The position numbers and the translations under genes were made by a program. This document shows, piece by piece, positions 4,962 through 49,583 of a DNA stretch of 64,000 nt. The first letter of the stretch is position 1. Every line of letters begins with the position of its first letter. This stretch comes from a virus. The notes beneath the pieces were generated by a model. That model made no database searches. It was not told the DNA's origin and was given only the letters and a program-made list of their open reading frames with translations. The stretch lies in the IMG/VR virus record IMGVR_UViG_3300008050_007409. The stretch is one strand, 5' to 3'.

Positions 4962-5572
4962 TGGAGTCCCTGACCCCAGAAGCCTTGATCTCTCAGCTCC
5001 TTGCAGAGCGGTGCGGAGGTCGGTGCCTGGATGACGAGGAGGACCGCCTGGCTGTCGCTGAGTGGGTCCTGGACTTCATGGAGGTCATGGCGGAGGGGCC
5101 TCAACCCCTCGCCACCTTCAGATTCCCAGATCCCCCTCCCAGCGCCAACAAGATCTACACCGTCAACCGAGGGCGGAAGATCTTGATGGCCGAAGCCAGG
5201 AAGTGGAAGAACCGCTTCGTCACCAGCAAGGGTGGGGCTCATTTCCTGGAGCTGGCTTCCTTGGATCTGAGCGACCATGATCAGTTCCACCTGGAGATCT
5301 GGATCTACCTTGATGAGGAGGAGATCCGGAACGTGAAGTTCGGCCAGGACAAGAGGACCAAGTACCCCTACGCAAAGGTCGACACCTCCAACTTCTTCAA
5401 GCTGGCGGAGGATGCAGTCACCGAGCTGCTGGGGGTCACCTGTGACCGGCAGAACTTCAAGATCTCCGCGCATAAGAGGGTAGCCGACGACCGCGGCCGT
5501 AGGATCGTCATACACCTCTTCCCCTACAACTCTCACCCTGATCCCTTGGATGCTGCCCCGGCCGTGGGTTAG
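4961..5572 (+). CDS. RusA-like Holliday junction resolvase
   Basis: PPSANKIY..GRK..EARKWK and KVDTSNFFKLAEDAV..CDRQ resemble RusA D-x-D-N-x-x-K-x-x-x-D...DD motifs. Confidence 0.7.
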   Translation: MESLTPEALISQLLAERCGGRCLDDEEDRLAVAEWVLDFMEVMAEGPQPLATFRFPDPPPSANKIYTVNRGRKILMAEARKWKNRFVTSKGGAHFLELASLDLSDHDQFHLEIWIYLDEEEIRNVKFGQDKRTKYPYAKVDTSNFFKLAEDAVTELLGVTCDRQNFKISAHKRVADDRGRRIVIHLFPYNSHPDPLDAAPAVG

Positions 5573-25758: not shown

Positions 25759-26814
25759 CTACGCCAGCATGAGCGCTCCGTAGATGCGCCTCCTCTGTGC
25801 CGGCGACATCTGGTCCAGGTGGCCCTTTCCGGTGAGATCCTCGGACATCGACATGAACGCCCCGGAGCCGGGGAGATGGCTATCAGATTCGATCCCCTTG
25901 GACTTGGCGAGTCTGTGGATCTGAGCCGGAGAGGGTCCGGAGCCCGGTCCCCGCTTCTCCACCCCAGCTCCTACAGCCATGCCAGCTCCAGGCATCATCA
26001 AGGCCAGCGTCAGCTTGCCCTTCTTGAAGTACTCGTGCCGGCCTCCGTCTCCCTTGATGCCGGCGGCCTCACGCTGCAGACGGGACGCCCTCTCCGACCC
26101 TCTCGAAGCTGGGAAGCCGCCCTTCGGGGCGATCTTCACAGAAGAGATCGGAGATGCTCGAACCTCCTCTCCTGGGAGCTCCTTGAAGCCTTTGGAGAGG
26201 ACCTGATCGATCTTCTTCGTCCGGTAGAAGTCTGCCTGCCAAGCCCCACGCTTCCTGGCCATGAGCTGGGCCTTCACCACCTTCGGGTCCTTCCTCATGT
26301 GGACGAAGACGTCGAAGCTACCGGGATCGGCTTCGGCGAGCATGTGGGTCTGCTCGTAGACTCCGGGCTTGACCTGCTTGCGTGAGAGGGTTGAGATCTG
26401 CTGCGCAGTCATGTTCGGCTTGTCGTAGTGGAAGACCCTCGTACCGGCTTGCTCCGCCAGGGCCTTGGCCGTGGTGCTCTTGCCCGTACCTCCGGTACCC
26501 GAGACTGCGATCCGAGACTTCTTCGGATCCACTCCTGCGTCCTTGAGCGCCTTCAAGATCCGGGCAGCCTCGTCCTTCGCTCCTTGAGGTAGGGGTCGAG
26601 CTGCATCCACCTTCCGAGAACCTCCCTTGCCGACTCCCTTGATCATGGCCCGGAGATTGGCCCGAGTGCCCGGAAGTCGACTGAGGCCCAGAGCCGTTCC
26701 CGCCGCGGCTCCGATGGCGACCCCTCTCCAGGGGAACTTCCGCCTCTTCCGAGAGGCTCCCAGCTTCTCGATCTCGTCCCAGAAGTAGGTCGCTGACGTG
26801 GTGGAGATGTTCAT
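25759..26814 (-). CDS. leader-bearing basic protein with P-loop kinase-like domain
   Basis: YFWDEIEKLG leader; RIAVSGTGGTGKSTTAKALA Walker A; two Gly-rich hydrophobic helices. Confidence 0.75.
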   Translation of the reverse strand: MNISTTSATYFWDEIEKLGASRKRRKFPWRGVAIGAAAGTALGLSRLPGTRANLRAMIKGVGKGGSRKVDAARPLPQGAKDEAARILKALKDAGVDPKKSRIAVSGTGGTGKSTTAKALAEQAGTRVFHYDKPNMTAQQISTLSRKQVKPGVYEQTHMLAEADPGSFDVFVHMRKDPKVVKAQLMARKRGAWQADFYRTKKIDQVLSKGFKELPGEEVRASPISSVKIAPKGGFPASRGSERASRLQREAAGIKGDGGRHEYFKKGKLTLALMMPGAGMAVGAGVEKRGPGSGPSPAQIHRLAKSKGIESDSHLPGSGAFMSMSEDLTGKGHLDQMSPAQRRRIYGALMLA

Positions 26815-27485
26815 CAGGACACCGTGACCGTGATGGTGGGGAGGGTGATCGTCGGGTGCTGGAGCCTCTCGATCACGTCGCCATCAGGCTCCTGGTACTC
26901 GTTGACCTCGTCGGTGTCGACCTCGGTGATCTCGATGGTGACGGTCCCGGCCTTGAGGGCGCGGAAGGACAGGTTGGCCACCTGCACCACCACCGTCTCG
27001 TCGCTGATCTCAATCTCCAAGGCCCCCTGCACGGAGCTCCCCGCCTCCTCGCCGTTGGAAAGGGTGGTCGTGATGTCCAGGGTGAACTGCTCCTCGACCT
27101 CGGCCTCATAGTCATCGCCGTCGTCGAACTCGATCTCGGTGATGTAGGGGAAGATGAGCGCCACCAGGTCGATGGAGCTCTCCTCTGGGACCACGACGGT
27201 TCGGACCAGGTCCGATTCCCTGCCTGGGATCTCGATCCTGACCGTAGCGCCCTGGTAGAGGTCGAACTCGACGTAGCCGTCGCCGTCCGACTTGGCGGTC
27301 TGGTGCTCGTTGAGGATCAGCGTGTTCGAGCTCACCGCTGCCGGGATGTGGATGTTCCGCACCGTGAGCTTCTCGCTCACCAGAGCGTCGCCGTGCAGGT
27401 CCTTCAAGTAGCCGGACACCCGACACATGTCTGCGTCGGGTTCGCCGCTGCCGGAGATCGCTGTGCCTGTGACCGTGTACCCCAT
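26814..27485 (-). CDS. acidic Ig-like virion protein
   Basis: EISDETVVVQV..RALKAGTVTIEIT resembles Big_2; SDGDGYVEFDL prealbumin-like fold. Confidence 0.65.
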   Translation of the reverse strand: MGYTVTGTAISGSGEPDADMCRVSGYLKDLHGDALVSEKLTVRNIHIPAAVSSNTLILNEHQTAKSDGDGYVEFDLYQGATVRIEIPGRESDLVRTVVVPEESSIDLVALIFPYITEIEFDDGDDYEAEVEEQFTLDITTTLSNGEEAGSSVQGALEIEISDETVVVQVANLSFRALKAGTVTIEITEVDTDEVNEYQEPDGDVIERLQHPTITLPTITVTVS

Positions 27486-28282
27486 CAGGATCCTCCTCGG
27501 GCCTTGCCTGTCCAGTAGGCCTGTCCAGGCCCGCTGACGTGTCGCTTCCCGTCTGGGGTGAAGCTGTAGGACACGTTGTCCTTCCCGAGGACCTCGGACA
27601 TCTGACCCTCTGCTGTCATCCTCGAGGGGACCTTCACCACGCGCTTCTCCCCGATGGGGACGTCGCGAGCCGCCTTCCCACCCCAGGGGACGTGCTTCCG
27701 GGCCTTCCTCGCCCTGTCCAGGTAGAGGTCGAAGCTGTGGGACTTCTTCTGGCTGCGCAGGCGCTCCAGGACGGCCTCGGCCTCCCTGTGGCCCTTCAGC
27801 GTCTGCTCCAGGTCGTGCGCTACCTGGAGCTGCTCTGTGGAGCGGCCAACGCCCTTGACCTGCCCCTGGGCCTCCCGCAACTGCTTGATCCTCGCCCCGG
27901 AGCCAGAGACGTTGGACTTCTGCTTCCGGATGGCGATGTCCAGGGGCTTGAAGATCCTCTGGAAGGCCTCTCGGCTGAGTCTGGCGTCCCTGGCGGTGAG
28001 ATGCTTGCGTCGGATCGCGGAGGCCCCCAGACTCAGCGCAGCGGCTCCAGATCCACCCATGACGGCTGCCTTGCCCAGGCGCTTGAGGAAGTCCTGCTTC
28101 TCGCTCTTGGAGAGGTCCCTGCCGTAGATCTGACCGTTCTGGAGCCAGTAGCGGGGCTCCTTCGTCTGGAAGGTCTTGGTGGCGAGGAAGCCTCCAGCGC
28201 CGCCCCCCACGACCAGGCCGGCCAGAGCTTCCAGAGCTCTGGCCTTGGCAGGCGTCATGGCGGCAGTCTTGATCTGAGGCAT
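27485..28282 (-). CDS. basic protein with glycine-zipper helices
   Basis: MPQIKTAA N-terminus; LAGLVVGGGAGGFLA and AAVMGGSGAAALSLGA helices; K/R-rich. Confidence 0.7.
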   Translation of the reverse strand: MPQIKTAAMTPAKARALEALAGLVVGGGAGGFLATKTFQTKEPRYWLQNGQIYGRDLSKSEKQDFLKRLGKAAVMGGSGAAALSLGASAIRRKHLTARDARLSREAFQRIFKPLDIAIRKQKSNVSGSGARIKQLREAQGQVKGVGRSTEQLQVAHDLEQTLKGHREAEAVLERLRSQKKSHSFDLYLDRARKARKHVPWGGKAARDVPIGEKRVVKVPSRMTAEGQMSEVLGKDNVSYSFTPDGKRHVSGPGQAYWTGKARGGS

Positions 28283-29112
28283 CAGCTGATCGTCAGGGAG
28301 AGGCTGGAGGAGGTGAGGTACTCGCCCTCGTTGTCGGGATCATCCTTCTTTACCCGAACGGTAGCCGGTGAGTCCAGCTCCTCGGGCACGACGAAGATGA
28401 GCACCGTGCCGTCGTCGGAGACCGCCTCGGGCGTGACCTCCTCACCACCGATGGTGACGATGGGGTTGTCCCCGTTGAAGTACGAGCCCTTGATCGCCAC
28501 AGAGTCGCCTTCGGAGGCGGTGCTGGGGAGGAGCTCGGAGATGACCGGCGTGACGTTCTCCCAGGCCAGCACGACCACGCTGGTGGGGTTCTCCTCGGAG
28601 AAGTCGTAGCCGCTCTTGGAGAAGCGGGCGTAGTAGCTCCCGGTGGGCAGGTCGAAGGAGACCTCGCCCGACGAGTCCGTGAGCGCCTTGCCGACCAGGC
28701 CGGAGCCGGTGCTGGTGAGGAGCCGGACCAGGACGCCCTCGATGGGGTTCTCCGAAGCATCCTCCACCGTGATCTCCAGAGTGCCCTCAGCGCCGTAGAG
28801 GGTCTGCCCGATCAGGTCCTGGGACTCGTGAGCGACCTGCAGGTGGATCTCGTGGGTGTCGTTGTCCACCAGGCGGAGGTAGGTCAGGCCAACCTCCGAG
28901 GGGGTCACGACGAGCTCGTAGTACCCGGGGAGATCCGAGTCATCGACTTCGGCCAGGGTCAGCGAGAGGTCTGTCTCTGGGTCCGAGCTCAGGGCGCCAG
29001 CAACCGCGGCGGAGATGGTGAAGTCTCCGATCACCAAGCCGGTCGTGTCCGACGAATCGATGATGGGGATGCGGAGCTGCCGTCCCTTGACGGCCTGGTA
29101 GATGTTCGGCAT
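28282..29112 (-). CDS. virion protein with carboxypeptidase-regulatory-like and IPT/TIG domains
   Basis: NPIEGVLVRL..TDSSGEVSFDLPTGSYYARFSKSGY; PVISELLPSTASEGDSVAIKGSYF..VTIGG. Confidence 0.8.
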   Translation of the reverse strand: MPNIYQAVKGRQLRIPIIDSSDTTGLVIGDFTISAAVAGALSSDPETDLSLTLAEVDDSDLPGYYELVVTPSEVGLTYLRLVDNDTHEIHLQVAHESQDLIGQTLYGAEGTLEITVEDASENPIEGVLVRLLTSTGSGLVGKALTDSSGEVSFDLPTGSYYARFSKSGYDFSEENPTSVVVLAWENVTPVISELLPSTASEGDSVAIKGSYFNGDNPIVTIGGEEVTPEAVSDDGTVLIFVVPEELDSPATVRVKKDDPDNEGEYLTSSSLSLTIS

Positions 29113-29115
29113 GGA

Positions 29116-29268
29116 TCAACCGGCCTTGACGACGGCGAAGGCATCCTTCTTGTCGCCCACGAGGGTGAGGAGGTTGGCCGAGGGCTGCTTGGGCAGGACC
29201 CCTCCGCCGTCCTGGTAGCTGTCGAGGGCTGAACCTCCGCCTGCGCTGCTTCCGCTGATCTGATCCAT
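29116..29268 (-). CDS. small hypothetical protein (50 aa)
   Basis: TGATG coupling with upstream gene; MDQISGSSAGGG... Confidence 0.55.
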   Translation of the reverse strand: MDQISGSSAGGGSALDSYQDGGGVLPKQPSANLLTLVGDKKDAFAVVKAG

Positions 29269-29468
29269 CAGACATCCACTCCCAACGTGGCGAGGTAGTC
29301 GTTGGCCTCGTCTATGGCCTGCTGGGTGGTGTTCTCGCTGGCCTCCGTCGACGCGGTCTTGATGCGCTGGAGCTGCTCGACCCGTGAGTCGACCTCGGCG
29401 CACTTGGCGTCGAAGACCTCCTTGACCGCGTCCTTGACCGCCTGAGCCTGAGTCGCCACGTCGCTCAT
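29268..29468 (-). CDS. small helical hypothetical protein
   Basis: ATGA overlap with sigma factor gene. Confidence 0.7.
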   Translation of the reverse strand: MSDVATQAQAVKDAVKEVFDAKCAEVDSRVEQLQRIKTASTEASENTTQQAIDEANDYLATLGVDV

Positions 29469-30217
29469 GTCAGACCTCGCTTCTTCATCTTGTCGTCGAT
29501 GCTCTTGCGGAGCCGGCTCACCTTCGGGCCCGAGACGTTCATCCGCCTGGCGATATCCTTGGCCGGGAGCTTGGGCTTGCCGTTGACGCCCAGGGTGTAC
29601 TCGTAGACCACGCGCTCCTGCATGGTCAGATCATGGTAGATGTAGCGCAGGATGTCCCGCTCCTCGCTCTCGAACAACGAGGGAAGCTGATCAGGCTCCG
29701 GCGTCATGGAGGCGATCCGGTCCTGGCGGAGCTCGGTCTCCATGCGACCCACCTCGGCCACGCTCCAGGTGTACTTCGGGTTGTGGGCCTGCAGCGCCTC
29801 CGACAGGGTTACAGCGTCCGGAGGATGGCCGAGCTGTTCGGTCAGATCCGCCCTGACTTCCTTGAAGGGGGTGATCTGGAGGGCACGGCCTTCGGGGATC
29901 CGCCCGAAGTTCTGGTGCTCGATGGTGAAGGACCGGAGCTTGCGCAGCTGCCAGTTCACCCAGGTGCGCACTCCGGCGCCCTTCTCGTTGTCCGGGTCGT
30001 AGGTCTGGAGACCCTTGAGGGCCAGCATCCGACCCTTGGATCGAAGCGCCTGCTCCGGGACCACGAAGTTCTTGGTCTTCGAGAACTCGCTGACCTTCCA
30101 GTCGACGTCCGGCTCGAACTCCTTCAGGAGAGGCTCGAGGTTCGCCTCCGTCGGATCTGCTTGCCAGGTCTTCCAGAGTTCGAGCTGCCTCTCCGCATCT
30201 GGATTGCGGCGAGCCAT
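29465..30217 (-). CDS. sigma-70 family RNA polymerase sigma factor
   Basis: Region 2 LKGLQTYDP..GAGVRTWVNWQLR; region 3 EQLGHPPDAVTLSEAL; region 4 LTMQERVVY..KDIARRMNVSGPKVSRLRKSI. Confidence 0.9.
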   Translation of the reverse strand: MARRNPDAERQLELWKTWQADPTEANLEPLLKEFEPDVDWKVSEFSKTKNFVVPEQALRSKGRMLALKGLQTYDPDNEKGAGVRTWVNWQLRKLRSFTIEHQNFGRIPEGRALQITPFKEVRADLTEQLGHPPDAVTLSEALQAHNPKYTWSVAEVGRMETELRQDRIASMTPEPDQLPSLFESEERDILRYIYHDLTMQERVVYEYTLGVNGKPKLPAKDIARRMNVSGPKVSRLRKSIDDKMKKRGLT

Positions 30218-30220
30218 TGA

Positions 30221-30763
30221 TCAGTACCCCGGACCGCTGCTTCCGCCACCGTAGCCCTGCTTCTTGTTCTTCTGGATGTCGTAGACGCGCTTCCCACCGA
30301 CAGCGGCTCCCGTGAGGCCGAGGCCGGCGGCGGTGCCGATGGCTACACGGCGGAGGGTGGAGGATCCGCCCTTCTTGTTGGTGGTGTTGGGGAGATCCAC
30401 ATGGGTGGGCGACTTCCGAGCGGGCTTCCCTTCCAGGATCCGGAGGGCGGAGTCCTGGTTCCCCCGTCCGGTACGGATCGCCTTCTTGGCCGCATCCCTC
30501 TCCACCTGGATCTGGGCCGTGGCCTTGCTGCGGGCCGCCTTCGCTCTGAGCCTGGATGCGTCAGCCATTCGGTGATCATCCGTGAAGGGCATGAACTTCT
30601 TCCACCCTCCCCAGCCAGTCGCGTTCCCTACTCGTTGGTGTTGCTTGGCGGCTCTGTTCGCCTGGGAAACCAGGCGATGTGCCTGACGGCTGTAGGCGAT
30701 CTTCTCCATCTCGGTCCAGAAGGCCTGGGCGATGGCGCGTCCGCGGGTGTCGAAGCTGTTCAT
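30221..30763 (-). CDS. leader-bearing basic protein with C-terminal hydrophobic helix
   Basis: AFWTEMEKIA leader; VAIGTAAGLGLTGAAVGG. Confidence 0.75.
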   Translation of the reverse strand: MNSFDTRGRAIAQAFWTEMEKIAYSRQAHRLVSQANRAAKQHQRVGNATGWGGWKKFMPFTDDHRMADASRLRAKAARSKATAQIQVERDAAKKAIRTGRGNQDSALRILEGKPARKSPTHVDLPNTTNKKGGSSTLRRVAIGTAAGLGLTGAAVGGKRVYDIQKNKKQGYGGGSSGPGY

Positions 30764-30769
30764 GTTGAT

Positions 30770-31915
30770 CTACCTGTAGACGACGGTGGTTTTGTTGCCA
30801 GCTGCCAGACCAGCGCCGCCTGCCAGCATGGTGCCGGCACCGCCCATCGCCCCCATGACGTTGGTGCGCTGATGCCTATTGAGGCCTCCCCACCACATCC
30901 CCATACGGGACTGACCCTGCTGCATGGGACCTTGGATGGGGGCTCCTCCCAACCCGAAATGGCGCTGGGCCCACGGCTGCTCTGCGGCGACTGGCGGTGC
31001 TCCTGTCGGAGCAACAGGACGACCTGCGGTTGCAGCGGGGTTGACCGGCTGAGCCGGCGCTCCCCCAACCACCGGCTGAGTAGCCGTGGGGGTCGGAGTC
31101 GGCTGAGCTGCCGTGGTGGGGGCAGCCGCGGGCTTGGCTGCGGCCTGCCTGCGAGCGAGCTCGGCTTCGATCTTCTTCTTCCGATCTGCCTTCCGCTGAC
31201 TCTTGGTCATCTGAGGCTTCTTGGGAGTGGCAGCCTGCGTAGGGGCGGGAGCAGTAGGACGTGCGGCAGTAGGAGTGCCGACGACCTTGGGCTGACTCAG
31301 GGCAGCCGATGCCGGTCCACGTGATCGGTCGGCGAGCGCAACGGATGCCGGACCCTTCCGCGCTCCGGCCTGGGCTCCCCCGGGAACCTGGACCCGTGCT
31401 CCAGGTCCGGGACCGGACGGAGGCTTCGGCATCTCGATACGAGCGCGAGGGGTACTGGACAGCGGAGCGGGCTTGGCACCGGTGAGGTCGATGGTGGGCT
31501 TCCGAATCTTGCTGGGGCTCACCCCGCGGTAGGCCGACTGGAACTGAACAGAGGCGTTGTCAGCGACAGCCCGAGCTTTGTTCTGCACGGTTCGCTTGGC
31601 TCGGCCGGCCGCGGCCTGGGCACTGCGTCCGAGGTTCTGAGCACTGCGTCCGGCACCAACCACACCAGTTCCGAGGCCTTCGAGTCCAGCGGCAGCTCCA
31701 CGACCTACGGCCCGGCCTCCTCGCGCCAGGTGGCCGAGTCCTCTGGCTACAGTACCTACGAAGGCGATCTTCTCGATCTCATCGTTGAAGGAGGCCACGG
31801 CGAGGTACTCGTTGGCCCCTGCGCGTGCCAACGCCTCGTCAGCAGCCCGGCGGAAGGATGCTGCGGATCCTCGGTGGTCCTGCGCGATCTTGTTCAGGGC
31901 TGAGGCGTGGGTCAT
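30770..31915 (-). CDS. leader-bearing Ala/Pro/Gly-rich basic protein
   Basis: LNKIA and SFNDEIEKIA motifs; low-complexity linker; C-terminal GAMGGAGTMLAGGAGLAAG. Confidence 0.75.
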   Translation of the reverse strand: MTHASALNKIAQDHRGSAASFRRAADEALARAGANEYLAVASFNDEIEKIAFVGTVARGLGHLARGGRAVGRGAAAGLEGLGTGVVGAGRSAQNLGRSAQAAAGRAKRTVQNKARAVADNASVQFQSAYRGVSPSKIRKPTIDLTGAKPAPLSSTPRARIEMPKPPSGPGPGARVQVPGGAQAGARKGPASVALADRSRGPASAALSQPKVVGTPTAARPTAPAPTQAATPKKPQMTKSQRKADRKKKIEAELARRQAAAKPAAAPTTAAQPTPTPTATQPVVGGAPAQPVNPAATAGRPVAPTGAPPVAAEQPWAQRHFGLGGAPIQGPMQQGQSRMGMWWGGLNRHQRTNVMGAMGGAGTMLAGGAGLAAGNKTTVVYR

Positions 31916-33747
31916 GATCTCATCCTATCCGATGGGGGCGTACCCTTCTCGCGGGTAGGCCTCGATCGAAGGATCTTAGCCGCGAGGGCACCTGTAGCGA
32001 AAGGTGCAGCGTATGTCGACCCTGCCGCCAGGAGGCGAGCTGCGGCCCTCCCGAGCTGTCGGTTGCTCGCTCCCATCCGCTTCATGTACTGCAGGCCCTT
32101 GGCCGTTGCAGTCGCTTCTTCCGCCAGCAGGGGAGCTCCAAGCAGTAGGGAGACCCCTCCGATGCGCTCCGCGAACTTCGCCTTGGCTTCGATCTCCTCC
32201 TTGGTGTGGAAGGATCGATCCGAGGCGCTGTCCAGGACGATCAGGGGAATCACCACAGCAGGGATGCGTGCGATCTCCCCGGCCTTCCGGGCGGCGGGGG
32301 ACGCGATGGTCTTGCGGCGGAGCTCCCCGGCAGTCGCATGCCCAAGCTCGTGGGCCAGGTCGGAGGCCCTGGAGGCGGACACGACGCCCTTGACCTTCCC
32401 TCCCTTGATCTTCTTCGCCAGGGCTCTGGCCTTGGCCTGCGCCTCCGGACTGGCCTCGCTGTGGGTGGACAGCAGCTCAGCGGCCTCTCCAGACAGGTCT
32501 GAGGGGTCGAAGCCTCGGTAGTAGGCCGAGGGCTTCTTGCCGAAGTGGATGCTGTCTCCGGACGAGCCGGCGTTGATCCTCTCCAGGCCACGATCGGCAG
32601 ACATCTGATCCAAGGCATCCTGGAGGACCAGGTCCTTTTCCTTGGCCTTCATCGGACTGATGCCCAGCTCCCAGACCAGGGAAGGGGCTGCGATCACGGC
32701 TGCAGCTGCAGCCGTGTGGGCGATGGAGGTGCCCTTCATCATCGGAGGATGGGTCTGGTGCCGCACTTGCTCCCTGGGCACCGGCAGGCCTCGTGTCCTG
32801 AGCTCGTCGTTGACCGCGTAGGTCACGGCCCGTCGAGAGGGGGTCCTCTCCGGATCCGGCCGTTGCTTGAGGAAGCTCTGAAGCCCCTGGTCAGACACGC
32901 CCCGCGCCTGGGATCGGGTGCTCGCGTAGAGCTGCCCGGCAGAGGATGCGGCAGTCAGCTGAGGTTGAGGCTGGTACTCCGAGGACTTCTTGGTCATCAT
33001 CCGAGCTGCCTCGGAGATGGCGACCGCGCCGATCACTCCAGCAGCGGCACGTCCGGCAGCGGCGCCACCGATCCCCCTCAAAGCCTTCCCGGCGTTGGGC
33101 CCCTTCAACGACTTCAGGGTCTTCTTGGCCCCGTCCTCGACGACCTTCTCGATGGCTCCCTTGGGGGCTCCGATCCCTGCTCCGATCAAGGCCGGCACTG
33201 CTACCCGGTCCTTCCAAGAGAGCTTCTTGCCCTTCTTCTGTGCCTTGGCGATGGATCTGGCGGTGATGGCTGCGGACCCCAGGCCGATGATGCCTCGAGT
33301 CCCTCCGATCTTCTTGGCGAGGTCCTTGATCTGAGTGGAGGTGAGCCCCCGACCTCGGTTCTTGATCCCGGCTTCGAGCCCGCCCTTGATGCCGGAGTAG
33401 GCCCCTCCCGCGGCGAGGACCTTGGCTGTCCCTTCCCTCTGACGCCCTTCCTTGAGGTCCTTGATCCCCGAGTAGAACAGAGGCGTGGTGAGGACGGACG
33501 CACCGAGGCGTCCCGAGGCCCTGCCGAAGCCGGACTTCCATGCCTTGGCCTTGACCGCAGGCTTCAGGCCCTTGGAGACCGCGACCTCGACCTTCTTGTC
33601 GACCCACCCCTTCGGGAAGTCAGCCGCAGACGTAGCGACGGCCACGGGGGCCGCAGCAAGCATCTGCGCCCCGTAGTTCCGCTTCTTCGACTTCTCCTGA
33701 GCGATCTTGCAGAGCTCGTAGGAGAAGGCCAGTCGCTCCAGGTCCAT
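31912..33747 (-). CDS. leader-bearing membrane-type protein with C-terminal zinc metallopeptidase (YugP/Zn_peptidase_2-like)
   Basis: AFSYELCKIA leader; AHELGHA..EEATATAKGL..LLAAGSTYAA; several glycine-zipper helices. Confidence 0.75.
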   Translation of the reverse strand: MDLERLAFSYELCKIAQEKSKKRNYGAQMLAAAPVAVATSAADFPKGWVDKKVEVAVSKGLKPAVKAKAWKSGFGRASGRLGASVLTTPLFYSGIKDLKEGRQREGTAKVLAAGGAYSGIKGGLEAGIKNRGRGLTSTQIKDLAKKIGGTRGIIGLGSAAITARSIAKAQKKGKKLSWKDRVAVPALIGAGIGAPKGAIEKVVEDGAKKTLKSLKGPNAGKALRGIGGAAAGRAAAGVIGAVAISEAARMMTKKSSEYQPQPQLTAASSAGQLYASTRSQARGVSDQGLQSFLKQRPDPERTPSRRAVTYAVNDELRTRGLPVPREQVRHQTHPPMMKGTSIAHTAAAAAVIAAPSLVWELGISPMKAKEKDLVLQDALDQMSADRGLERINAGSSGDSIHFGKKPSAYYRGFDPSDLSGEAAELLSTHSEASPEAQAKARALAKKIKGGKVKGVVSASRASDLAHELGHATAGELRRKTIASPAARKAGEIARIPAVVIPLIVLDSASDRSFHTKEEIEAKAKFAERIGGVSLLLGAPLLAEEATATAKGLQYMKRMGASNRQLGRAAARLLAAGSTYAAPFATGALAAKILRSRPTREKGTPPSDRMRS

Positions 33748-33774
33748 GTCCCTACCTCCTGGGAGGAGGCGAGA

Positions 33775-34437
33775 TCAGGCCTCCGAAACGACGTTGTTCC
33801 GGTTCATCAGGGCGACGTTGTCCGCGCCGGCGGCGACGCTCTCCATGTGCGGGGAGGCCGAGTTCTCGTCGATGATGAACGAGCAGACGTGGGCCCAGGC
33901 GGTGACGCCATCGTGCACGGAGTCGGAGGCCTCCAGGGCCGCCTGGATCTCGGTGCTCGACAGGTGCGAGGTCTCGTCCTCGTAGTCCGTGCTGTCGCCG
34001 TTCACGATCAGGACGAGCAGGGCAGCGCCGTCGTCGTCTTCGTCCGCGTCACCGGCTCCATCGCTGTTGCACACGATGAGGGTGCAGTAGGCGGTCTCGT
34101 CCGTGCTGAGCGACAGGGCCGTCGCGGCCGTGCCGTCCTCGTAGATGGCTGCTCCCACGCTGCCGCTGGTGGCCAGGAGGTCGGTGTTGGTCAGAGCGGA
34201 GATCGTCTGCATCAGGCGCCCGCCCAGCATGCAGCGCAGGGCGGTCATGTCGGCGCTGAAGGTGCCCGCCGCGATCGAGGAGCCCTCGGTGACCACGCCG
34301 CCCTCGAGAACCTCGCTCCGCTCACGGAAGGCGTTCACGATCTTCTGGCGGATCAGCTTGAGCTCGTAGCCCCAGCCCTTGCGGGGGGTCCAGTTGAACA
34401 GCTTCTGGAGGGCGTTCTTGCCGGTGGCGAGGCTCAT
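33775..34437 (-). CDS. acidic hypothetical virion protein
   Basis: RBS AGGAG; very GC3-biased codons suggest high expression. Confidence 0.75.
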   Translation of the reverse strand: MSLATGKNALQKLFNWTPRKGWGYELKLIRQKIVNAFRERSEVLEGGVVTEGSSIAAGTFSADMTALRCMLGGRLMQTISALTNTDLLATSGSVGAAIYEDGTAATALSLSTDETAYCTLIVCNSDGAGDADEDDDGAALLVLIVNGDSTDYEDETSHLSSTEIQAALEASDSVHDGVTAWAHVCSFIIDENSASPHMESVAAGADNVALMNRNNVVSEA

Positions 34438-34516
34438 GCGGGTGCTCCTGCGGTAGGGTCTTGGCCTTCAGGGGTGATCCCTGTCCGGACCAGGTTGCCC
34501 GAGGAGCATAGCACTT

Positions 34517-35782
34517 TCACTTCTCCTTGCCCAGGAAGGCGTTGACCAGGCGGAGGCGCTTGGCGCTCCGGATCCGGTGGACCGGGTTGAGTCCCCGCTT
34601 CCGAGGCTTCCTGGGCTTCTCAGCTGCTGTTCTGACCATCCCTCGCTGCTGAGGTACCGGCTTCTTGGGCTTCATCCACTTGTTGACCTTGACTGCCCCG
34701 TAGGTGCCCGCGCCCAGGACACTCAACCCTCCTGCAGCTCGGAGGGCGTTCATGGGCTGGGCCTTGATGCCTTGGATGATCTGCTTGACGGCGCTCTCCT
34801 TGTCCATGTCGCTGGCCGCTGAGTTCTTGCCTCCGGTGCCCTCCTCCTCGTCCTCGTTCTCCTCCGGCGTCTTGATCCGGTTCTTCTTGGACTTGGGTGC
34901 CTTCTGAGTGATGATCTGCTTGGCCCCACACTTCCGGCAGTGGTTGTCGTCCTCCTGGCAGACGGCTCCGCACTCGAGGCAGTTCTTCCGGCCTTCTTCG
35001 CTGAGGAGATCCTCCGTCTGGATCGTCCCCTCATCGGAGTCGTCAGCGGGGAGACGGGAAGACGCGGCCTTGGACTTCCCCTTCTTCAGTCGAGACTGGA
35101 ACTCCTTCTCAGCATCCCGACCCTTCTGGTACTGGACGTGAGCACCTCCCGCACCGATGGCTCCACCCAGCCCCAACTGTGCGTACCCGCCCGCCAGCTC
35201 CTTCCTGGCACCAGGTAGAACCTGCTTGGCTTGATCTTGGGAGATCCTGTTGGAGCTTGACGTCCTGAGAGGACTGCCGGCCTTCAGGGCCTTCTCGGCT
35301 TGGTCACGTGCCGCGTCGACACTGGCGTTGTCAGACATGTAGCGGAGGTTCTTCTTCTGGGCCTTGGTCAGGCTGACCCCGCCAGTGGTCTTGGCTGCAC
35401 GGTTCAGAGTCTTGACAGCCTTCGTCCCTCGGTAGACAGACTCCAAGGGGTATTTCGCCCCACGAACGGCCCCCGATACAGCTCCGCGAGCCATGCCTCG
35501 GACGCCGCCACCGCTCGCCAACCCCTTCCCTGCTCCGATCAGCCCGTGAATGGCGGAAGGAACGACGACAGCCCCACCGACAACACCACCGGCAACACCT
35601 GCCATCTGCTTCTTCCGATGCGTCTTCCTGCTGAGCCCCTTCCGCTGAGCCTCCTGCCCGTAGCGGCTGGTGTAGGCCCCAAAGGGATCGATGCCGGCCG
35701 CGAAGTCCTTCGCGTACCCTGCCGTCTTGATGATCTCGTCCATCTCCTGCAGCATGGCGAGCTCGATCATCTCAGACATCAC
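34517..35782 (-). CDS. leader-bearing multi-segment protein with glycine zippers and zinc ribbon
   Basis: AMLQEMDEIIKTA leader; AGVAGGVVGG; CLECGAVCQEDDNHCRKCG; internal KAAS, KESA, RTAA. Confidence 0.75.
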   Translation of the reverse strand: MMSEMIELAMLQEMDEIIKTAGYAKDFAAGIDPFGAYTSRYGQEAQRKGLSRKTHRKKQMAGVAGGVVGGAVVVPSAIHGLIGAGKGLASGGGVRGMARGAVSGAVRGAKYPLESVYRGTKAVKTLNRAAKTTGGVSLTKAQKKNLRYMSDNASVDAARDQAEKALKAGSPLRTSSSNRISQDQAKQVLPGARKELAGGYAQLGLGGAIGAGGAHVQYQKGRDAEKEFQSRLKKGKSKAASSRLPADDSDEGTIQTEDLLSEEGRKNCLECGAVCQEDDNHCRKCGAKQIITQKAPKSKKNRIKTPEENEDEEEGTGGKNSAASDMDKESAVKQIIQGIKAQPMNALRAAGGLSVLGAGTYGAVKVNKWMKPKKPVPQQRGMVRTAAEKPRKPRKRGLNPVHRIRSAKRLRLVNAFLGKEK

Positions 35783-37947
35783 GGACCTCCTCCGAACCAG
35801 CGGTACACGCGGGAGTCCCGCTTCTTCTGCTCGTGGGTATGCCTCTGCTGTAGCACATCCCGGAGCTCCCTCGTGTTCCTCGACTTCCGATCCGCAGTCA
35901 TGTAGGCGTACTGACCCACGCTGCGCTCCGCCTTCTGGAACGTGATCGTCTGCCAGAAGTTCTTGGGCACGGCCGTGACGTAGCGGTTGACGATCACGCC
36001 GCGCTTGTCCAGGGGCCGATGGCTCTGCCCGCCGGCCCTGATGCCGCGGGCCGCGGCCTGGTTCATGCGCTCGGGGTTGTAGTGCGGATCAGCCAGCGCC
36101 ACCATCGTCGTGTTGCCCAGGGAGAGGCCCTCGGCCCCAGCCCCGGTGATGATGATCACCTTCTTCTTCCCGGCCTTGTAGTCCTCCACGTCCTGCTGAC
36201 GCCGCTCCTCGGTCATGCCCTTCATGGACTTGCCAGCGAAGACCCCGTGCTCGATGCCTCGGGCCGTCAGTCCAGCGCTGATGACGTCGACCCCACCCTT
36301 CACCAGGTTGGTGTAGATGATCACCTTCCCGTCCGAGGTGGTCTTGAGGTGCTTCTGCACGTCGTCCATGATCCGCTTGATCTTCGGAGTCCGCTCAGCG
36401 GACTGGGCCGGGGTGAGCTTCCGGTTGACCAGGTGCATGGAGTTCGAGATCTGCTGGGCACGCTGCAGGCGGGTGAAGGCGTTCATCTCCTCCCGCTTGT
36501 TGAGCATGATCCCCAGGCTGATCTTCCGGCGCAGAGCCGGGTCCACGCCCTTCATGGCCATCTTGTAGGCCCGGAGCTGCTCCGAGCTCATGGGCACCGC
36601 CACGTCCTTGACGTGCTTGGGCGGCTTCTCGGTGGCGTTCAGATCCTCGATGTAGTGGATGGAGCCGCCGATCCGGTTGTAGAGCTGCTCCTTGTTCTTG
36701 AGCCGCTTCTCCATGACCTTGCCACCGAAGACGCCTCGCTGGGCGGTCTGCACCCTCTGAGTGTGCTGGCGGTGGAACTGCCTCTTGGTCTTGATCGGAG
36801 CCTTTCCGCCTGTGACCAGGTTGACCAGGGGGACGGCGTCGGAAGAGTCGTTCTGGGCGATCGAGGCCGTCAGGCCCATCACGTTGGGCACCCTGGTCCG
36901 TGCGTAGGCGATGGCCTTGTGGGTGGAGCTGTCCGGGTTGCCCGCCCGGTGGAACTCGTCCGCGATGAGCGTGTCGGGCTTGTAGGCGTCGATGAAGGCC
37001 TGGGGGTTCCGTCGGAAGGCTGAGTAGGACACCACGACGTACTCGGTGTCCTGGCTGACCTTCTGGTTGGCGTTGGTGAGCATCACGCTCTTGGATCCGG
37101 TGAACTTGCCGACGCTGTCGTGGAAGTTCTTGCGCAGCCCTGCCGGGGCGATGACCAGGGCTCGCTTGGCCTTGCCCTGACCCTTGAGCTTCTCGAAGGT
37201 GGCAATGGCCGAGACCGTCTTGCCGGTGCCCGTGCCATGGGCGGCGATGTGGCCAGAGGTCGGATCCTTCAGCACCTTCTTGGCGAAGTCCGCCTGGTGG
37301 GCCTTGAGCTTGACGAAGCCCTTGAGCCGGTTCTTCGTGACCCAGGTACGTCCGGCCTGTTCGTTGCCGAACTGGTCGTGTCCCTTCTGACCGGCCGGGA
37401 GCCGGCGCCAGTGGCCTCCTGACTCTGCGATCTTCTGGAACTCGACCTGGAAGGAGGCGAGGGCGACGTTCGACGCTGCCACCTTCCTGAGCTGGTCCGG
37501 AGGGACCAGCTTGAAGCGCATGTCGGACTTGCGGATCCTCGCCCGCACAGCGGGAGGCACATCGTGGAAGTTGTGCTTGATGACCCTCTTGAGGCTCGTC
37601 GGGGCGACGGCGTCCTTGTGGAACAGGTAGTGCTTCCCGACCCGGTGGGCGTGCAGCTTCCCCTTCCGCCAGGTGGGGGTGAACAACCGCTCGCCAGGCA
37701 GTGGGATCGCCATGCGAGTCTTCTTGAACCCACGCTCCTTGAGGTCCCCGATCTCCTTCGCGGACACCGCCACCTGAGGGTGCGTCCAGCCTGGGTTGAC
37801 CACCTGTTCGATGGCATCCAGGATCTGCTTCTCCGCCTTACCTCCATCCACGGAGATCAGCGGAACAGAGCTGTCCTTGGCGATCTTCTCCATCCCGACG
37901 AGAGCCTCGTCAGCGCGGAGTGCCTGGAACCAGCGCTGGGTGCTCAT
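35779..37947 (-). CDS. SF2 (SNF2-like) helicase with leader motifs
   Basis: AHQ, HGTGTGKT, ADEFH, GLTAS, KVIIYTN, AGAEGLSL, YNPERMNQAAARGIRAG; MEKIA and SFQVEFQKIA upstream of the helicase. Confidence 0.92.
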   Translation of the reverse strand: MSTQRWFQALRADEALVGMEKIAKDSSVPLISVDGGKAEKQILDAIEQVVNPGWTHPQVAVSAKEIGDLKERGFKKTRMAIPLPGERLFTPTWRKGKLHAHRVGKHYLFHKDAVAPTSLKRVIKHNFHDVPPAVRARIRKSDMRFKLVPPDQLRKVAASNVALASFQVEFQKIAESGGHWRRLPAGQKGHDQFGNEQAGRTWVTKNRLKGFVKLKAHQADFAKKVLKDPTSGHIAAHGTGTGKTVSAIATFEKLKGQGKAKRALVIAPAGLRKNFHDSVGKFTGSKSVMLTNANQKVSQDTEYVVVSYSAFRRNPQAFIDAYKPDTLIADEFHRAGNPDSSTHKAIAYARTRVPNVMGLTASIAQNDSSDAVPLVNLVTGGKAPIKTKRQFHRQHTQRVQTAQRGVFGGKVMEKRLKNKEQLYNRIGGSIHYIEDLNATEKPPKHVKDVAVPMSSEQLRAYKMAMKGVDPALRRKISLGIMLNKREEMNAFTRLQRAQQISNSMHLVNRKLTPAQSAERTPKIKRIMDDVQKHLKTTSDGKVIIYTNLVKGGVDVISAGLTARGIEHGVFAGKSMKGMTEERRQQDVEDYKAGKKKVIIITGAGAEGLSLGNTTMVALADPHYNPERMNQAAARGIRAGGQSHRPLDKRGVIVNRYVTAVPKNFWQTITFQKAERSVGQYAYMTADRKSRNTRELRDVLQQRHTHEQKKRDSRVYRWFGGGP

Positions 37948-48212: not shown

Positions 48213-48407
48213 TCAGTAGCTGACGCCGTCTTGCGGCCGTGTGTTCTCGATGATCTTCTTCCGCACCTCCGCGCACGTGAAGCGGCGGTGGCCACCCTTC
48301 GTGCGGTCCACAGCCTCGAGCTTCCCGGAGGATTCCCAGTTCCGGATCGTCCGAGGGGTGACCCCGCAGAGTTCGGCAACCTGGGCTGTGGTGAGGAGTT
48401 CCGCCAT
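48213..48407 (-). CDS. MerR/excisionase-type HTH DNA-binding protein
   Basis: MAELLTTAQVAELCGVTPRTIRNWESSGKL..RTKGGHRRF. Confidence 0.9.
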   Translation of the reverse strand: MAELLTTAQVAELCGVTPRTIRNWESSGKLEAVDRTKGGHRRFTCAEVRKKIIENTRPQDGVSY

Positions 48408-48457
48408 TGCGACAGCACTACCCCGAAGTCGGAAGAAGGTCAAGTTCCGATTTCCGA

Positions 48458-48464
48458 GTATAAG
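48458..48464 (+). promoter_or_regulatory. GNATAAG putative phage promoter element
   Basis: GTATAAG 33 nt before ATG 48498; same motif at 53956, 60019 and 59969-59975(-). Confidence 0.5.
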
Positions 48465-48497
48465 CACGCGAAACCCATGAGGAGCAGGAGAGTGCCT

Positions 48498-49583
48498 ATG
48501 GATCGACACGAAGAGGCCCTGGTTCTGTCGGGGTCTGCCCCGAACGACCTGGACGTCGTTCGTCAAATGGAGCGCATGCCGACGCGCATGTCCGAGGCTC
48601 CCGAAGGGCTCCGAGAAGATCAGACCCCTGATGAGGGTGCGGCCGCCTTCGTCCAGGACATGCTGGACTTCAAGTTCGGGGACCTGATCCAGCAGGAGCT
48701 GGGACTCCAGGTCCGGGAGCTGCCCGAGTACATGATCGCTGTGGGGCTGATCGGCGGGCTGGACTGGATTGCACTGTGCGGCTGGTGGGCCTGGACCTAC
48801 ACCGGCATCTACCACAGCAGCGAGACCTACAAGTGGGTCTACCGCTACACCAGCTGGGACGATGAGGCGAACAAGGAGATCATCTACGAGTTCGACCCCG
48901 ACATGATCATGAAGTTCAAGGAGGATCCGGAGGAGAACGCCTTCGAGGAGCGCTTCACGGATCCGGGCCTGACCGACAAGGAGCGGAGCGAGGCCGTCCA
49001 GTTCCTGATCCACGACGTCTACAGGGCGATGGACCTGGAGCCGCCTCCCAAGCTGCTGGTGGAGCTGATCCTCTACTGCACCTTCATGTGGGTGCTCAGC
49101 GACAACGGCCGGGAGTGGCTCTGCGAGATCGACCCGGTCTGGTCCTGCGTGGACGACTTCGGGGTCGCCTTCCTCGAGCAGTGGGAGAACATGCTCCTGG
49201 ACCCGCGGAACATGGAGTGCACCCAGCGCGGGCTCGGCACCTGTGCCTTCTGCAAGGAGAACCTCCACTGCGTCGTCGGCGCCACTATCAACGACGACTG
49301 GTTCATGGTCTGCAACGACTGCATGTGCGTTGCCATGGACCAGGGCCACGAGGTGGATCAGATGGACAACCGGATCGCAGAGCCTCTCTGCCCGTTCCGA
49401 GGAGGCCGGTGCCTGAACACCGAGTGCCCGCACAACCCACTCACGGAGGAGGATGTGGTCGAGGCGATGCAGGAGCACGGCACCCGCCGACTGAACCAGT
49501 GGCGAGGCAACCGCCTCGAGTCGAACGAACCTCGGAAGCTGGCCGGTAGGACCGTCGACGAGATCATCGACTTCTTCCGATGA
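48498..49583 (+). CDS. hypothetical protein with Cys-rich C-terminus
   Basis: RBS AGGAG; CAFC, CNDCMC, CPF..CLNTECPH. Confidence 0.8.
   Translation: MDRHEEALVLSGSAPNDLDVVRQMERMPTRMSEAPEGLREDQTPDEGAAAFVQDMLDFKFGDLIQQELGLQVRELPEYMIAVGLIGGLDWIALCGWWAWTYTGIYHSSETYKWVYRYTSWDDEANKEIIYEFDPDMIMKFKEDPEENAFEERFTDPGLTDKERSEAVQFLIHDVYRAMDLEPPPKLLVELILYCTFMWVLSDNGREWLCEIDPVWSCVDDFGVAFLEQWENMLLDPRNMECTQRGLGTCAFCKENLHCVVGATINDDWFMVCNDCMCVAMDQGHEVDQMDNRIAEPLCPFRGGRCLNTECPHNPLTEEDVVEAMQEHGTRRLNQWRGNRLESNEPRKLAGRTVDEIIDFFR

Follow-up and report, generated by a model that had tools for sequence, protein, structure and literature searches.

The 64,000-nucleotide (nt) stretch of viral DNA analysed here (the window; IMG/VR virus record IMGVR_UViG_3300008050_007409) encodes a series of otherwise unrelated proteins that carry the same short peptide, referred to below as the tag, near their N-termini. 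The window corresponds, in reverse complement, to positions 5204–69203 of a 104,726-bp virus record (G000), with 12 mismatches between the two, and G000 has a CheckV completeness of about 60% and derives from an uncultured phage of ~170 kb. All tagged genes of the window lie on its minus strand (Table 1; residue and nt positions are given in window coordinates). An initial annotation had reported that one short motif opens these unrelated genes, and every motif it quoted was found at the gene to which it was assigned. The range of 25759–37947 that it gave for the family is real and proved too narrow, with at least five further tagged genes present in G000 outside the window, some adjoining a 639-residue protein or standing near the terminase. 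The double-tag arrangement of the 381-amino-acid (aa) protein was also found in proteins of relatives. Besides its degenerate tag and a glycine zipper, the 421-aa protein encoded at 34517–35782 contains a zinc ribbon (CxxC…CxxC), which had been proposed in the initial annotation and drew a weak match (E = 0.002).

Table 1. Tagged genes of the window, followed by other genes of the same phage and its relatives
Feature	Location	Strand	Tag positions and other properties
351-aa basic P-loop (Walker A) protein	25759–26814	minus	Tag FWDEIEKLG, residues 11–19, nt 26758–26784; Gly/Ala-rich segment next
265-aa basic protein	27485–28282	minus	Tag core alone, M-P-Q-I-K-T-A (QIKTA residues 3–7), nt 28262–28276; then glycine-zipper segment
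180-aa basic protein	30221–30763	minus	Tag FWTEMEKIA, residues 15–23, nt 30695–30721; glycine zipper C-terminal
381-aa basic low-complexity protein	30770–31915	minus	Half tag LNKIA, residues 7–11, nt 31883–31897
381-aa protein, second tag	30770–31915	minus	Full tag FNDEIEKIA, residues 43–51, nt 31763–31789
611-aa protein	31912–33747	minus	Tag FSYELCKIA, residues 8–16, nt 33700–33726; glycine-zipper helical N-terminal half; C-terminal HExxH domain
421-aa basic protein	34517–35782	minus	Degenerate tag …DEIIKTA (residues 10–21, nt 35720–35755; DEIIKTA 15–21)
722-aa SNF2-family helicase	35779–37947	minus	Half tag GMEKIA, residues 18–23, nt 37879–37899
722-aa helicase, second tag	35779–37947	minus	Full tag FQVEFQKIA, residues 166–174, nt 37426–37452
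Sigma-like protein, 250 aa	29465–30217	minus	Between tagged genes; without tag
Single-chain beta-beta' RNA polymerase, 2060 aa	G000:C1:85211–91393 (L002:212–6394), outside window	plus	Rpb2_6, Rpb1_1–5 domains
g078, 666 aa	G000:C1:95058–97058 (L002:10059–12059), outside window	plus	Eight E/Q-K-[VTL]-A sites
561/935-aa family	G001 (IMGVR_UViG_3300025687_000024) 81143–82828; G006 148907–151714; Arash Gp222		Between terminase and scaffold/capsid
Large terminase, baseplate-J protein, gp5-like spike	G000		

The tag and its cargo

Across the 89 called proteins of G000, the pattern [FWYLM]-x-x-[ED]-[ILMVFC]-x-K-[ITLV]-[AG] was matched 13 times in 12 proteins, against an expectation of 0.45 ± 0.69 (maximum 5) from 2000 composition-preserving shuffles. 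Eleven of these 13 matches fall inside the first 60 residues (binomial p = 2e-7), and both the existence of the tag and its N-terminal position are established directly. All matches are read in two frames of the coding strand, and none occurs in the four remaining frames. Tag carriers are also restricted to the late strand: they account for 12 of its 51 genes and for none of the 38 genes encoded opposite (Fisher p = 7e-4).

Tagged proteins of G000 are basic, with Lys and Arg making up 16% and Asp and Glu 9% of their residues, compared to 11% and 14% in untagged late proteins (net charge, Mann-Whitney p = 3e-4), in agreement with the K/R-rich character and acidic neighbours described at first. 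Among 114 tagged open reading frames (ORFs), 91% have a net positive charge and the median length after the tag is 117 residues; the basic and small cargo would fit internal head proteins. Glycine-zipper motifs are found at 1.0–1.3 per 100 residues in tagged proteins, as against 0.21 in late proteins that lack the tag. Acidic proteins whose genes alternate with the tagged ones on the minus strand contain immunoglobulin (Ig)-like domains, with CarboxypepD_reg, TIG and SdrD_B above or near the Pfam cut-offs at window 28282–29112 and a weak Big_2 match at window 26814–27485. Judged by these domains, they would be fibre or decoration proteins rather than core parts of the tail.

A few of the cargo proteins have the features of enzymes. 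Pfam agrees with the SNF2-like helicase recognized by the initial annotation, and the protein it had called a P-loop kinase was confirmed as a Walker A NTPase, the kinase designation being unsupported. For the 611-aa protein, proposed to be a zinc peptidase, the HExxH motif (466–470) and a downstream glutamate (E544) are invariant in 16 orthologues, making it a candidate zinc metallopeptidase, although one that lacks a Pfam, PDB or fold match. The identical protein is also recorded on a 165-kb contig. An AlphaFold2 model of this protein (pLDDT, the predicted local distance difference test score, of 66) placed the tag within a helix (residues 3–20), followed by a low-confidence stretch (residues 15–34). 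The N-terminal half of the model resembled Tim17/22/23-type helical bundles in VIA-align (Z 9–10, root-mean-square deviation 4–6 Å, 115–216 residues aligned), at a level that is not significant for helical folds. Searches with the 611-aa protein, g078 and g069 using Pfam, PHROGs, PDB profiles, the ESM Atlas, AlphaFold2 with Foldseek and VIA-align were otherwise uninformative or below the level that counts.

Conservation and modularity in one phage clade

Conservation of the tag in orthologues, a further check set by the initial annotation, was borne out in relatives of the phage. The relative G001 (110 kb, ~60% terminase identity) contains at least 14 tags, and its orthologue of the 611-aa protein reads F-A-A-E-L-T-K-I-A where the window protein reads F-S-Y-E-L-C-K-I-A. 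The F8 and K14 of the tag do not vary among 16 orthologues of this protein. In G001, the tagged genes form a cluster (89.5–100 kb) downstream of the capsid gene. A scan of IMG/VR DNA for A-F-x-x-E-L-E-K-I-A returned at least 120 stretches, and the matches listed span a G+C content (GC) of 23–70%, lie mostly at N-termini and reach up to six tags per locus. A nucleotide-level element was ruled out, as the tag is kept across this range of GC with varying codons.

A link to T4-type portals was also considered and rejected. For 26 of 120 listed stretches, the match is an internal helix, …R-A-F-x-S-E-L-E-K-I-A-V-V-H-L… (Portal_T4, E = 7.5e-79), and these stretches are left out of the viral position statistics. 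The portal proteins concerned are ~660 aa long and occur in many marine contigs (L025, L027, L030, L033 and 22 more).

Where a start could be defined, 68% of 169 viral tags among the matches listed lie no more than 30 residues from the first possible start codon, as opposed to 20% of 92 in cell genomes. Most matches of the cell genomes, of which 596 Gb were scanned in the same way, occur singly and inside the protein, the exceptions being two phage-like contigs of metagenome-assembled genomes (MAGs). These contigs, L192 (a Proteobacteria MAG, 7.5 kb) and L214 (an Anaerolineales MAG, 116-kb contig), each have three to four tags at N-termini. Both probably belong to the tag-bearing phage clade and were binned with bacterial genomes, and the bins could hint at hosts.

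The sequence logo reads A-F-x-D-E-L-E-K-I-A, with a weak preference for I/V at –5 and M/L at –8 and an abrupt drop in conservation past the alanine. The aspartate (position +2, 58%) was not selected by the search pattern, while the remaining positions in part were. The full consensus, [M/L]-x-x-[I/V]-x-x-x-A-F-x-D-E-L-E-K-I-A, describes an acidic, amphipathic N-terminal helix.

The tag had been proposed from the outset to be a portable signal, and its modularity is observed directly: orthologues keep it on unrelated proteins while the x positions and the codons vary. Between the window helicase and its G001 orthologue, the alignment begins at residue 178 of the former, four residues past the tag, and in helicases on other contigs the tag lies directly ahead of the helicase body. 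The homologue Gp217 of Salmonella phage Arash (31% identity, E = 9e-50) begins at the helicase body and has no tag. Similarly, the G001 orthologue of the 421-aa tagged protein begins M-T-I-A-K-D, exactly at the end of the tag of the window protein. With the helicase body and this orthologue starting at or just past its end, the tag behaves as a detachable N-terminal extension.

The tag-bearing phages share a single-chain RNA polymerase. A polymerase of ~2070 residues is encoded in all five large tag-bearing genomes tested (175–202 kb; three with terminal repeats), and the gene in G000 (Table 1) sits within the virion gene block. The five complete relatives carry three to seven tags each, 23 of 23 on the RNA polymerase strand, as against zero to one matches to a reversed control pattern. 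Restriction to one clade, like that to the late strand, is directly established, and comparison of the genomes supports the tag as a hallmark of this clade. The G000 polymerase is 33–42% identical to those of the five complete 175–202-kb relatives and 28% identical to those of the cultured Vibrio phages D69, D181 and D148. The Arash polymerase, whose gene is split in two, shows 29% identity across the first 71% of the query. These phages are the nearest cultured ones (terminase and RNA polymerase, 28–30% identity), and no close cultured relative was found. No tag was present in the scanned regions of Arash (100 kb) and D69 (47 kb).

Tailed phages with cellular-type beta and beta' modules and an NADFDGD-type core are classed as RNA-polymerase-encoding Caudovirales (mReC), and the single-chain polymerase of G000 has these features. 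T4-type capsids are reported for the mReC clade (PMC7481178). Neither a T4-type capsid (PF07068) nor an S77 protease (PF03420) was found above the cut-off in G000–G004, all five of which are fragments. Because the T4-type capsids of the mReC clade were not found in the tag-bearing records, the identity of these phages with the published clade is not established.

The sigma-like protein encoded between the tagged genes is a homologue of Arash Gp10 (24% identity, E = 6e-14). Elsewhere in the window (48213–49478, minus strand), another protein of 421 aa carries a helix-turn-helix of the MerR/excisionase type in its C-terminal part (PF00376, E = 3e-13); its best PHROG matches include a family of small terminase subunits. 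A search for related loci using a neighbouring 823-aa protein gave no match.

The tag core in head-module proteins and a candidate protease

Outside full tags, the core [DEQN]-K-[ITLV]-A was observed 20 times compared to 7.6 ± 2.8 expected, and its recurrence in proteins of the head module is a direct observation. The 666-aa protein g078 has eight such sites, most of which are kept at aligned positions in closer orthologues. The protein gave an AlphaFold2 model with a pLDDT of 63 and no match in PDB, Pfam or the Atlas, and it could be a multi-site protease substrate. A segment of g078 (A-L-Q-E-K-I-A-G-V-F) was examined as a sign of a portal homologous to the T4-type proteins, for which hhalign gave a probability of 0.2%; the match was treated as probably a coincidence.

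In most close tag-bearing relatives, E-G-K-E-K-[LI]-A or a near variant of it occupies residues ~20–26 of the major capsid protein, which matches phrog_2522, whereas the capsid proteins of Arash and D69 have G-L-[VT]-K-E-A-G-A at that position instead. Immediately upstream of the capsid gene of relative G006, an acidic low-complexity protein of 490 residues contains L-D-E-I-M-K-I-A and, from its sequence, has the look of a scaffold.

Between the terminase and the scaffold and capsid genes lies a family of proteins (561 aa in G001 and 935 aa in G006) with a conserved His/Ser domain that includes an invariant H-H, an S-M-G-C and a zinc ribbon. The family shows a weak match to the head-maturation-protease family phrog_18299 (E = 1.5e-5). 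In an alignment of ten members, including those of Arash and D69, a K-x-A site stands just ahead of the domain (K in 90%, A in 100%) and a second K-x-A, part of a conserved …K-[VL]-A-S, is invariant just behind it. Some members contain inteins, and the G006 member is fused to an InPase (PF18823) domain. The domain had no Pfam match at E ≤ 10 and none in a PDB profile search. Taken together, these proteins are candidates for a new family of prohead proteases.

The initial annotation had suggested looking for the motif in the propeptides of capsid and scaffold proteins, and the core K-h-A was seen near the N-terminus of the capsid protein and in the scaffold-like protein, as the short motif only. 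With its presence in capsid, scaffold-like, protease-like and internal proteins, the core would link the tag to head maturation and to cleavage at K-x-A circumstantially; the motif is short and the evidence weak. The end of conservation at the alanine and the G001 orthologue that begins where the tag ends are circumstantial support of the same kind.

Possible roles of the tag in the virion

With a probability of about 0.5, the best explanation of these results is that the tag is a T4-like capsid-targeting propeptide ending in a maturation-protease site, through which proteins would be loaded into the head, trimmed and later ejected. During prohead assembly, the tag helix would dock small, basic, DNA-binding-like proteins to the scaffold or to the inner face of the capsid, and a few enzymes (the SNF2 helicase, the P-loop NTPase and the HExxH protein) would be docked likewise. 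The prohead protease would then cut at or beside the K-[ILVT]-A of the tag, as well as at the same core in its own flanks, in the N-terminal arm of the capsid protein and in scaffold-like proteins. The basic glycine-zipper cargo would stay with the DNA and, on infection, pass out of the head together with it. The same exit would be taken by the RNA polymerase and sigma factor, which are virion-borne in a distant cultured relative.

The arrangement resembles those of phages T4 and SPN3US because it combines an acidic peptide on basic proteins, a core shared by capsid, scaffold-like and protease-like proteins, proteins with multiple sites, and sites flanking the protease candidate itself; the sequence is another one and the protease apparently too. 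For herpesvirus assemblin and HK97-type prohead proteases, the release and maturation sites have the form h-x-A/S and are cleaved behind the Ala. The small-residue sites before and directly after (…K-[VL]-A-S) the candidate protease domain resemble such self-release sites, but the hydrophobic/polar order within the site differs and the candidate domain, for which Pfam and PDB gave no match, would be a putative member of this fold family at most.

In T4, the capsid-targeting sequence (CTS) is carried by the internal proteins IPI–IPIII and removed by the prohead protease gp21 (Mullaney & Black 1996, as cited in PMC9958956). Both systems place an acidic, amphipathic N-terminal peptide of ~10 residues on unrelated basic proteins, and a short N-terminal peptide common to several unrelated proteins, the mark of a T4-type CTS, is what was found here. 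The T4 CTS can be transferred to foreign proteins and ends at the site of a protease that also trims the capsid protein and breaks down the scaffold. The T4 enzyme cleaves after Glu in L/I-x-E, whereas the conserved end of the tag is K-I-A and the logo shows no conserved L/I-x-E at that register. The tagged proteins are also more numerous than in T4, with three to seven per complete genome tested and at least 12 in the incomplete G000. In SPN3US, gp245 cuts N-terminal propeptides of 20–254 residues at A-x-E (PMC10052503). As proposed for the tag-bearing phages, head proteins of SPN3US and phiKZ-like phages (ejection, portal and capsid proteins) have N-terminal propeptides, the long ones with multiple sites, and the protease trims itself (PMC10052503). 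The phiKZ-like phages also carry RNA polymerase in the virion, as the tag-bearing phages would; it is made of several subunits in the former and of one chain here. Unlike the tag, the phiKZ-like propeptides share a three-residue site alone and have no 10-residue consensus, and the protease family and motif are different.

Several observations weigh against a propeptide function. The protease assignment rests on one weak PHROG match, gene position and invariant residues. K-h-A is short and helix-friendly, and its conservation within folded domains may be structural. Capsid proteins of the G010 type do not have E-K-L-A at the aligned position, though G010 has seven tags, and several tags of the window are among baseplate and tail genes, not beside head genes. 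In Arash virions, mass spectrometry detected Gp10 (the sigma factor), Gp217 (the helicase) and the two pieces of the RNA polymerase, although its authors warn of possible contamination of the sample by abundant non-structural proteins (PMC10585845). The RNA polymerase and sigma-like protein are untagged in the phage studied here, though their Arash homologues were found in those preparations, as was the untagged Arash helicase. Given this helicase and the absence of tags from the scanned regions of Arash and D69, the tag therefore cannot be the general packaging route of the clade.

The alternative that survives best, and which we nevertheless consider unlikely, is that of a docking tag that is never cut, in which the helix binds a single conserved hub of the phage (the scaffold, the interior of the capsid, the portal, the lumen of the tail or the packaged RNA polymerase) and is retained by the mature protein. 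The strict F, E, L, K, I and A with hydrophobic spacing of i, i+4 and i+7/8 are like those of a groove-binding helix, a helix was modelled at the tag of the 611-aa protein, and tandem tags within single proteins would add avidity. The location of many window tags among baseplate and tail genes would also suit such a hub. The tag would then be comparable to encapsulin cargo-loading peptides or to the N-terminal packing signals known from PVC/Afp contractile injection systems, likewise short, portable peptides on diverse cargo, destined for an HK97-fold shell or a contractile device. However, encapsulin peptides are mostly C-terminal, of another consensus and uncleaved, and the injection-system signals lack a strict consensus; the likeness is no claim of homology. 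An uncut tag is at odds with the invariance of the core around the protease-like domain and its repetition in the scaffold-like protein and g078, which are typical of cleavage sites and not of cargo tags, and with the orthologue that begins exactly at the end of the tag.

Targeting to a membrane or chaperone is improbable. Here, the cargo would be glycine-zipper membrane proteins (of an ejectosome, channel, lysis or exclusion function) and the tag would recruit an insertase or holding chaperone, not the capsid. The excess of glycine zippers in tagged proteins is in its favour, as is the likeness of the 611-aa model to Tim17/22/23-type bundles, itself below the level that counts for helical folds. 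Yet a strongly hydrophobic stretch of 19 residues is present in no more than about 10% of tagged ORFs, and the tag is also found on soluble enzymes (the helicase and P-loop NTPase). It is acidic and sequence-specific, unlike known membrane-targeting helices, and this explanation leaves the core in capsid, scaffold-like and protease-like proteins unaccounted for.

Least probable is that the tag has no signal function and is left over from the duplication of an N-terminal module (a paralogous family), or serves as a degron or in regulation apart from assembly: residues upstream of the tag are alike within genomes, with six L036 genes all starting M-N-F-[EQ]-[EQ]-A-F-F-D-E-L, a sign that tagged genes were recently duplicated, but conservation spans about 10 residues only, holds across GC 23–70% and on unrelated domains, and is limited to late-strand genes.

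No published description of the tag was found; a full-text search for the tag core returned unrelated words, and PMC7481178 is silent on the motif. N-terminal virion-targeting and maturation propeptides are a known kind of signal, from which the tag is set apart by its strict consensus, the number of tagged proteins and its spread across an uncultured clade.

Returning to the capsid-targeting propeptide, we would put it at slightly short of an even chance that the peptide is a ten-residue tag for loading into the head and trimming, used by a globally distributed, uncultured clade of 175–200-kb phages that packages its own single-chain RNA polymerase, and that it defines the proteins these phages inject. 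If so, the injected set would consist of basic DNA-coating proteins, a helicase, an NTPase, a metallopeptidase and membrane-active glycine-zipper proteins. Packed and injected proteins are usually known only through mass spectrometry of cultured phages; the injected proteome would here be readable from sequence alone, for a large uncultured clade and from metagenomes. The tagged set, together with the apparent delivery of the phage's own RNA polymerase and sigma factor, hints at the strategy of early infection. The T4 CTS is already in use for loading foreign proteins into capsids, and the tag would provide a new handle for this, as a second portable tag that is unrelated to the T4 CTS and much more strictly conserved. 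A well-defined pair of peptide and receptor in HK97-type capsids would also bear on how cargo loading in encapsulins compares with scaffolding in phages.

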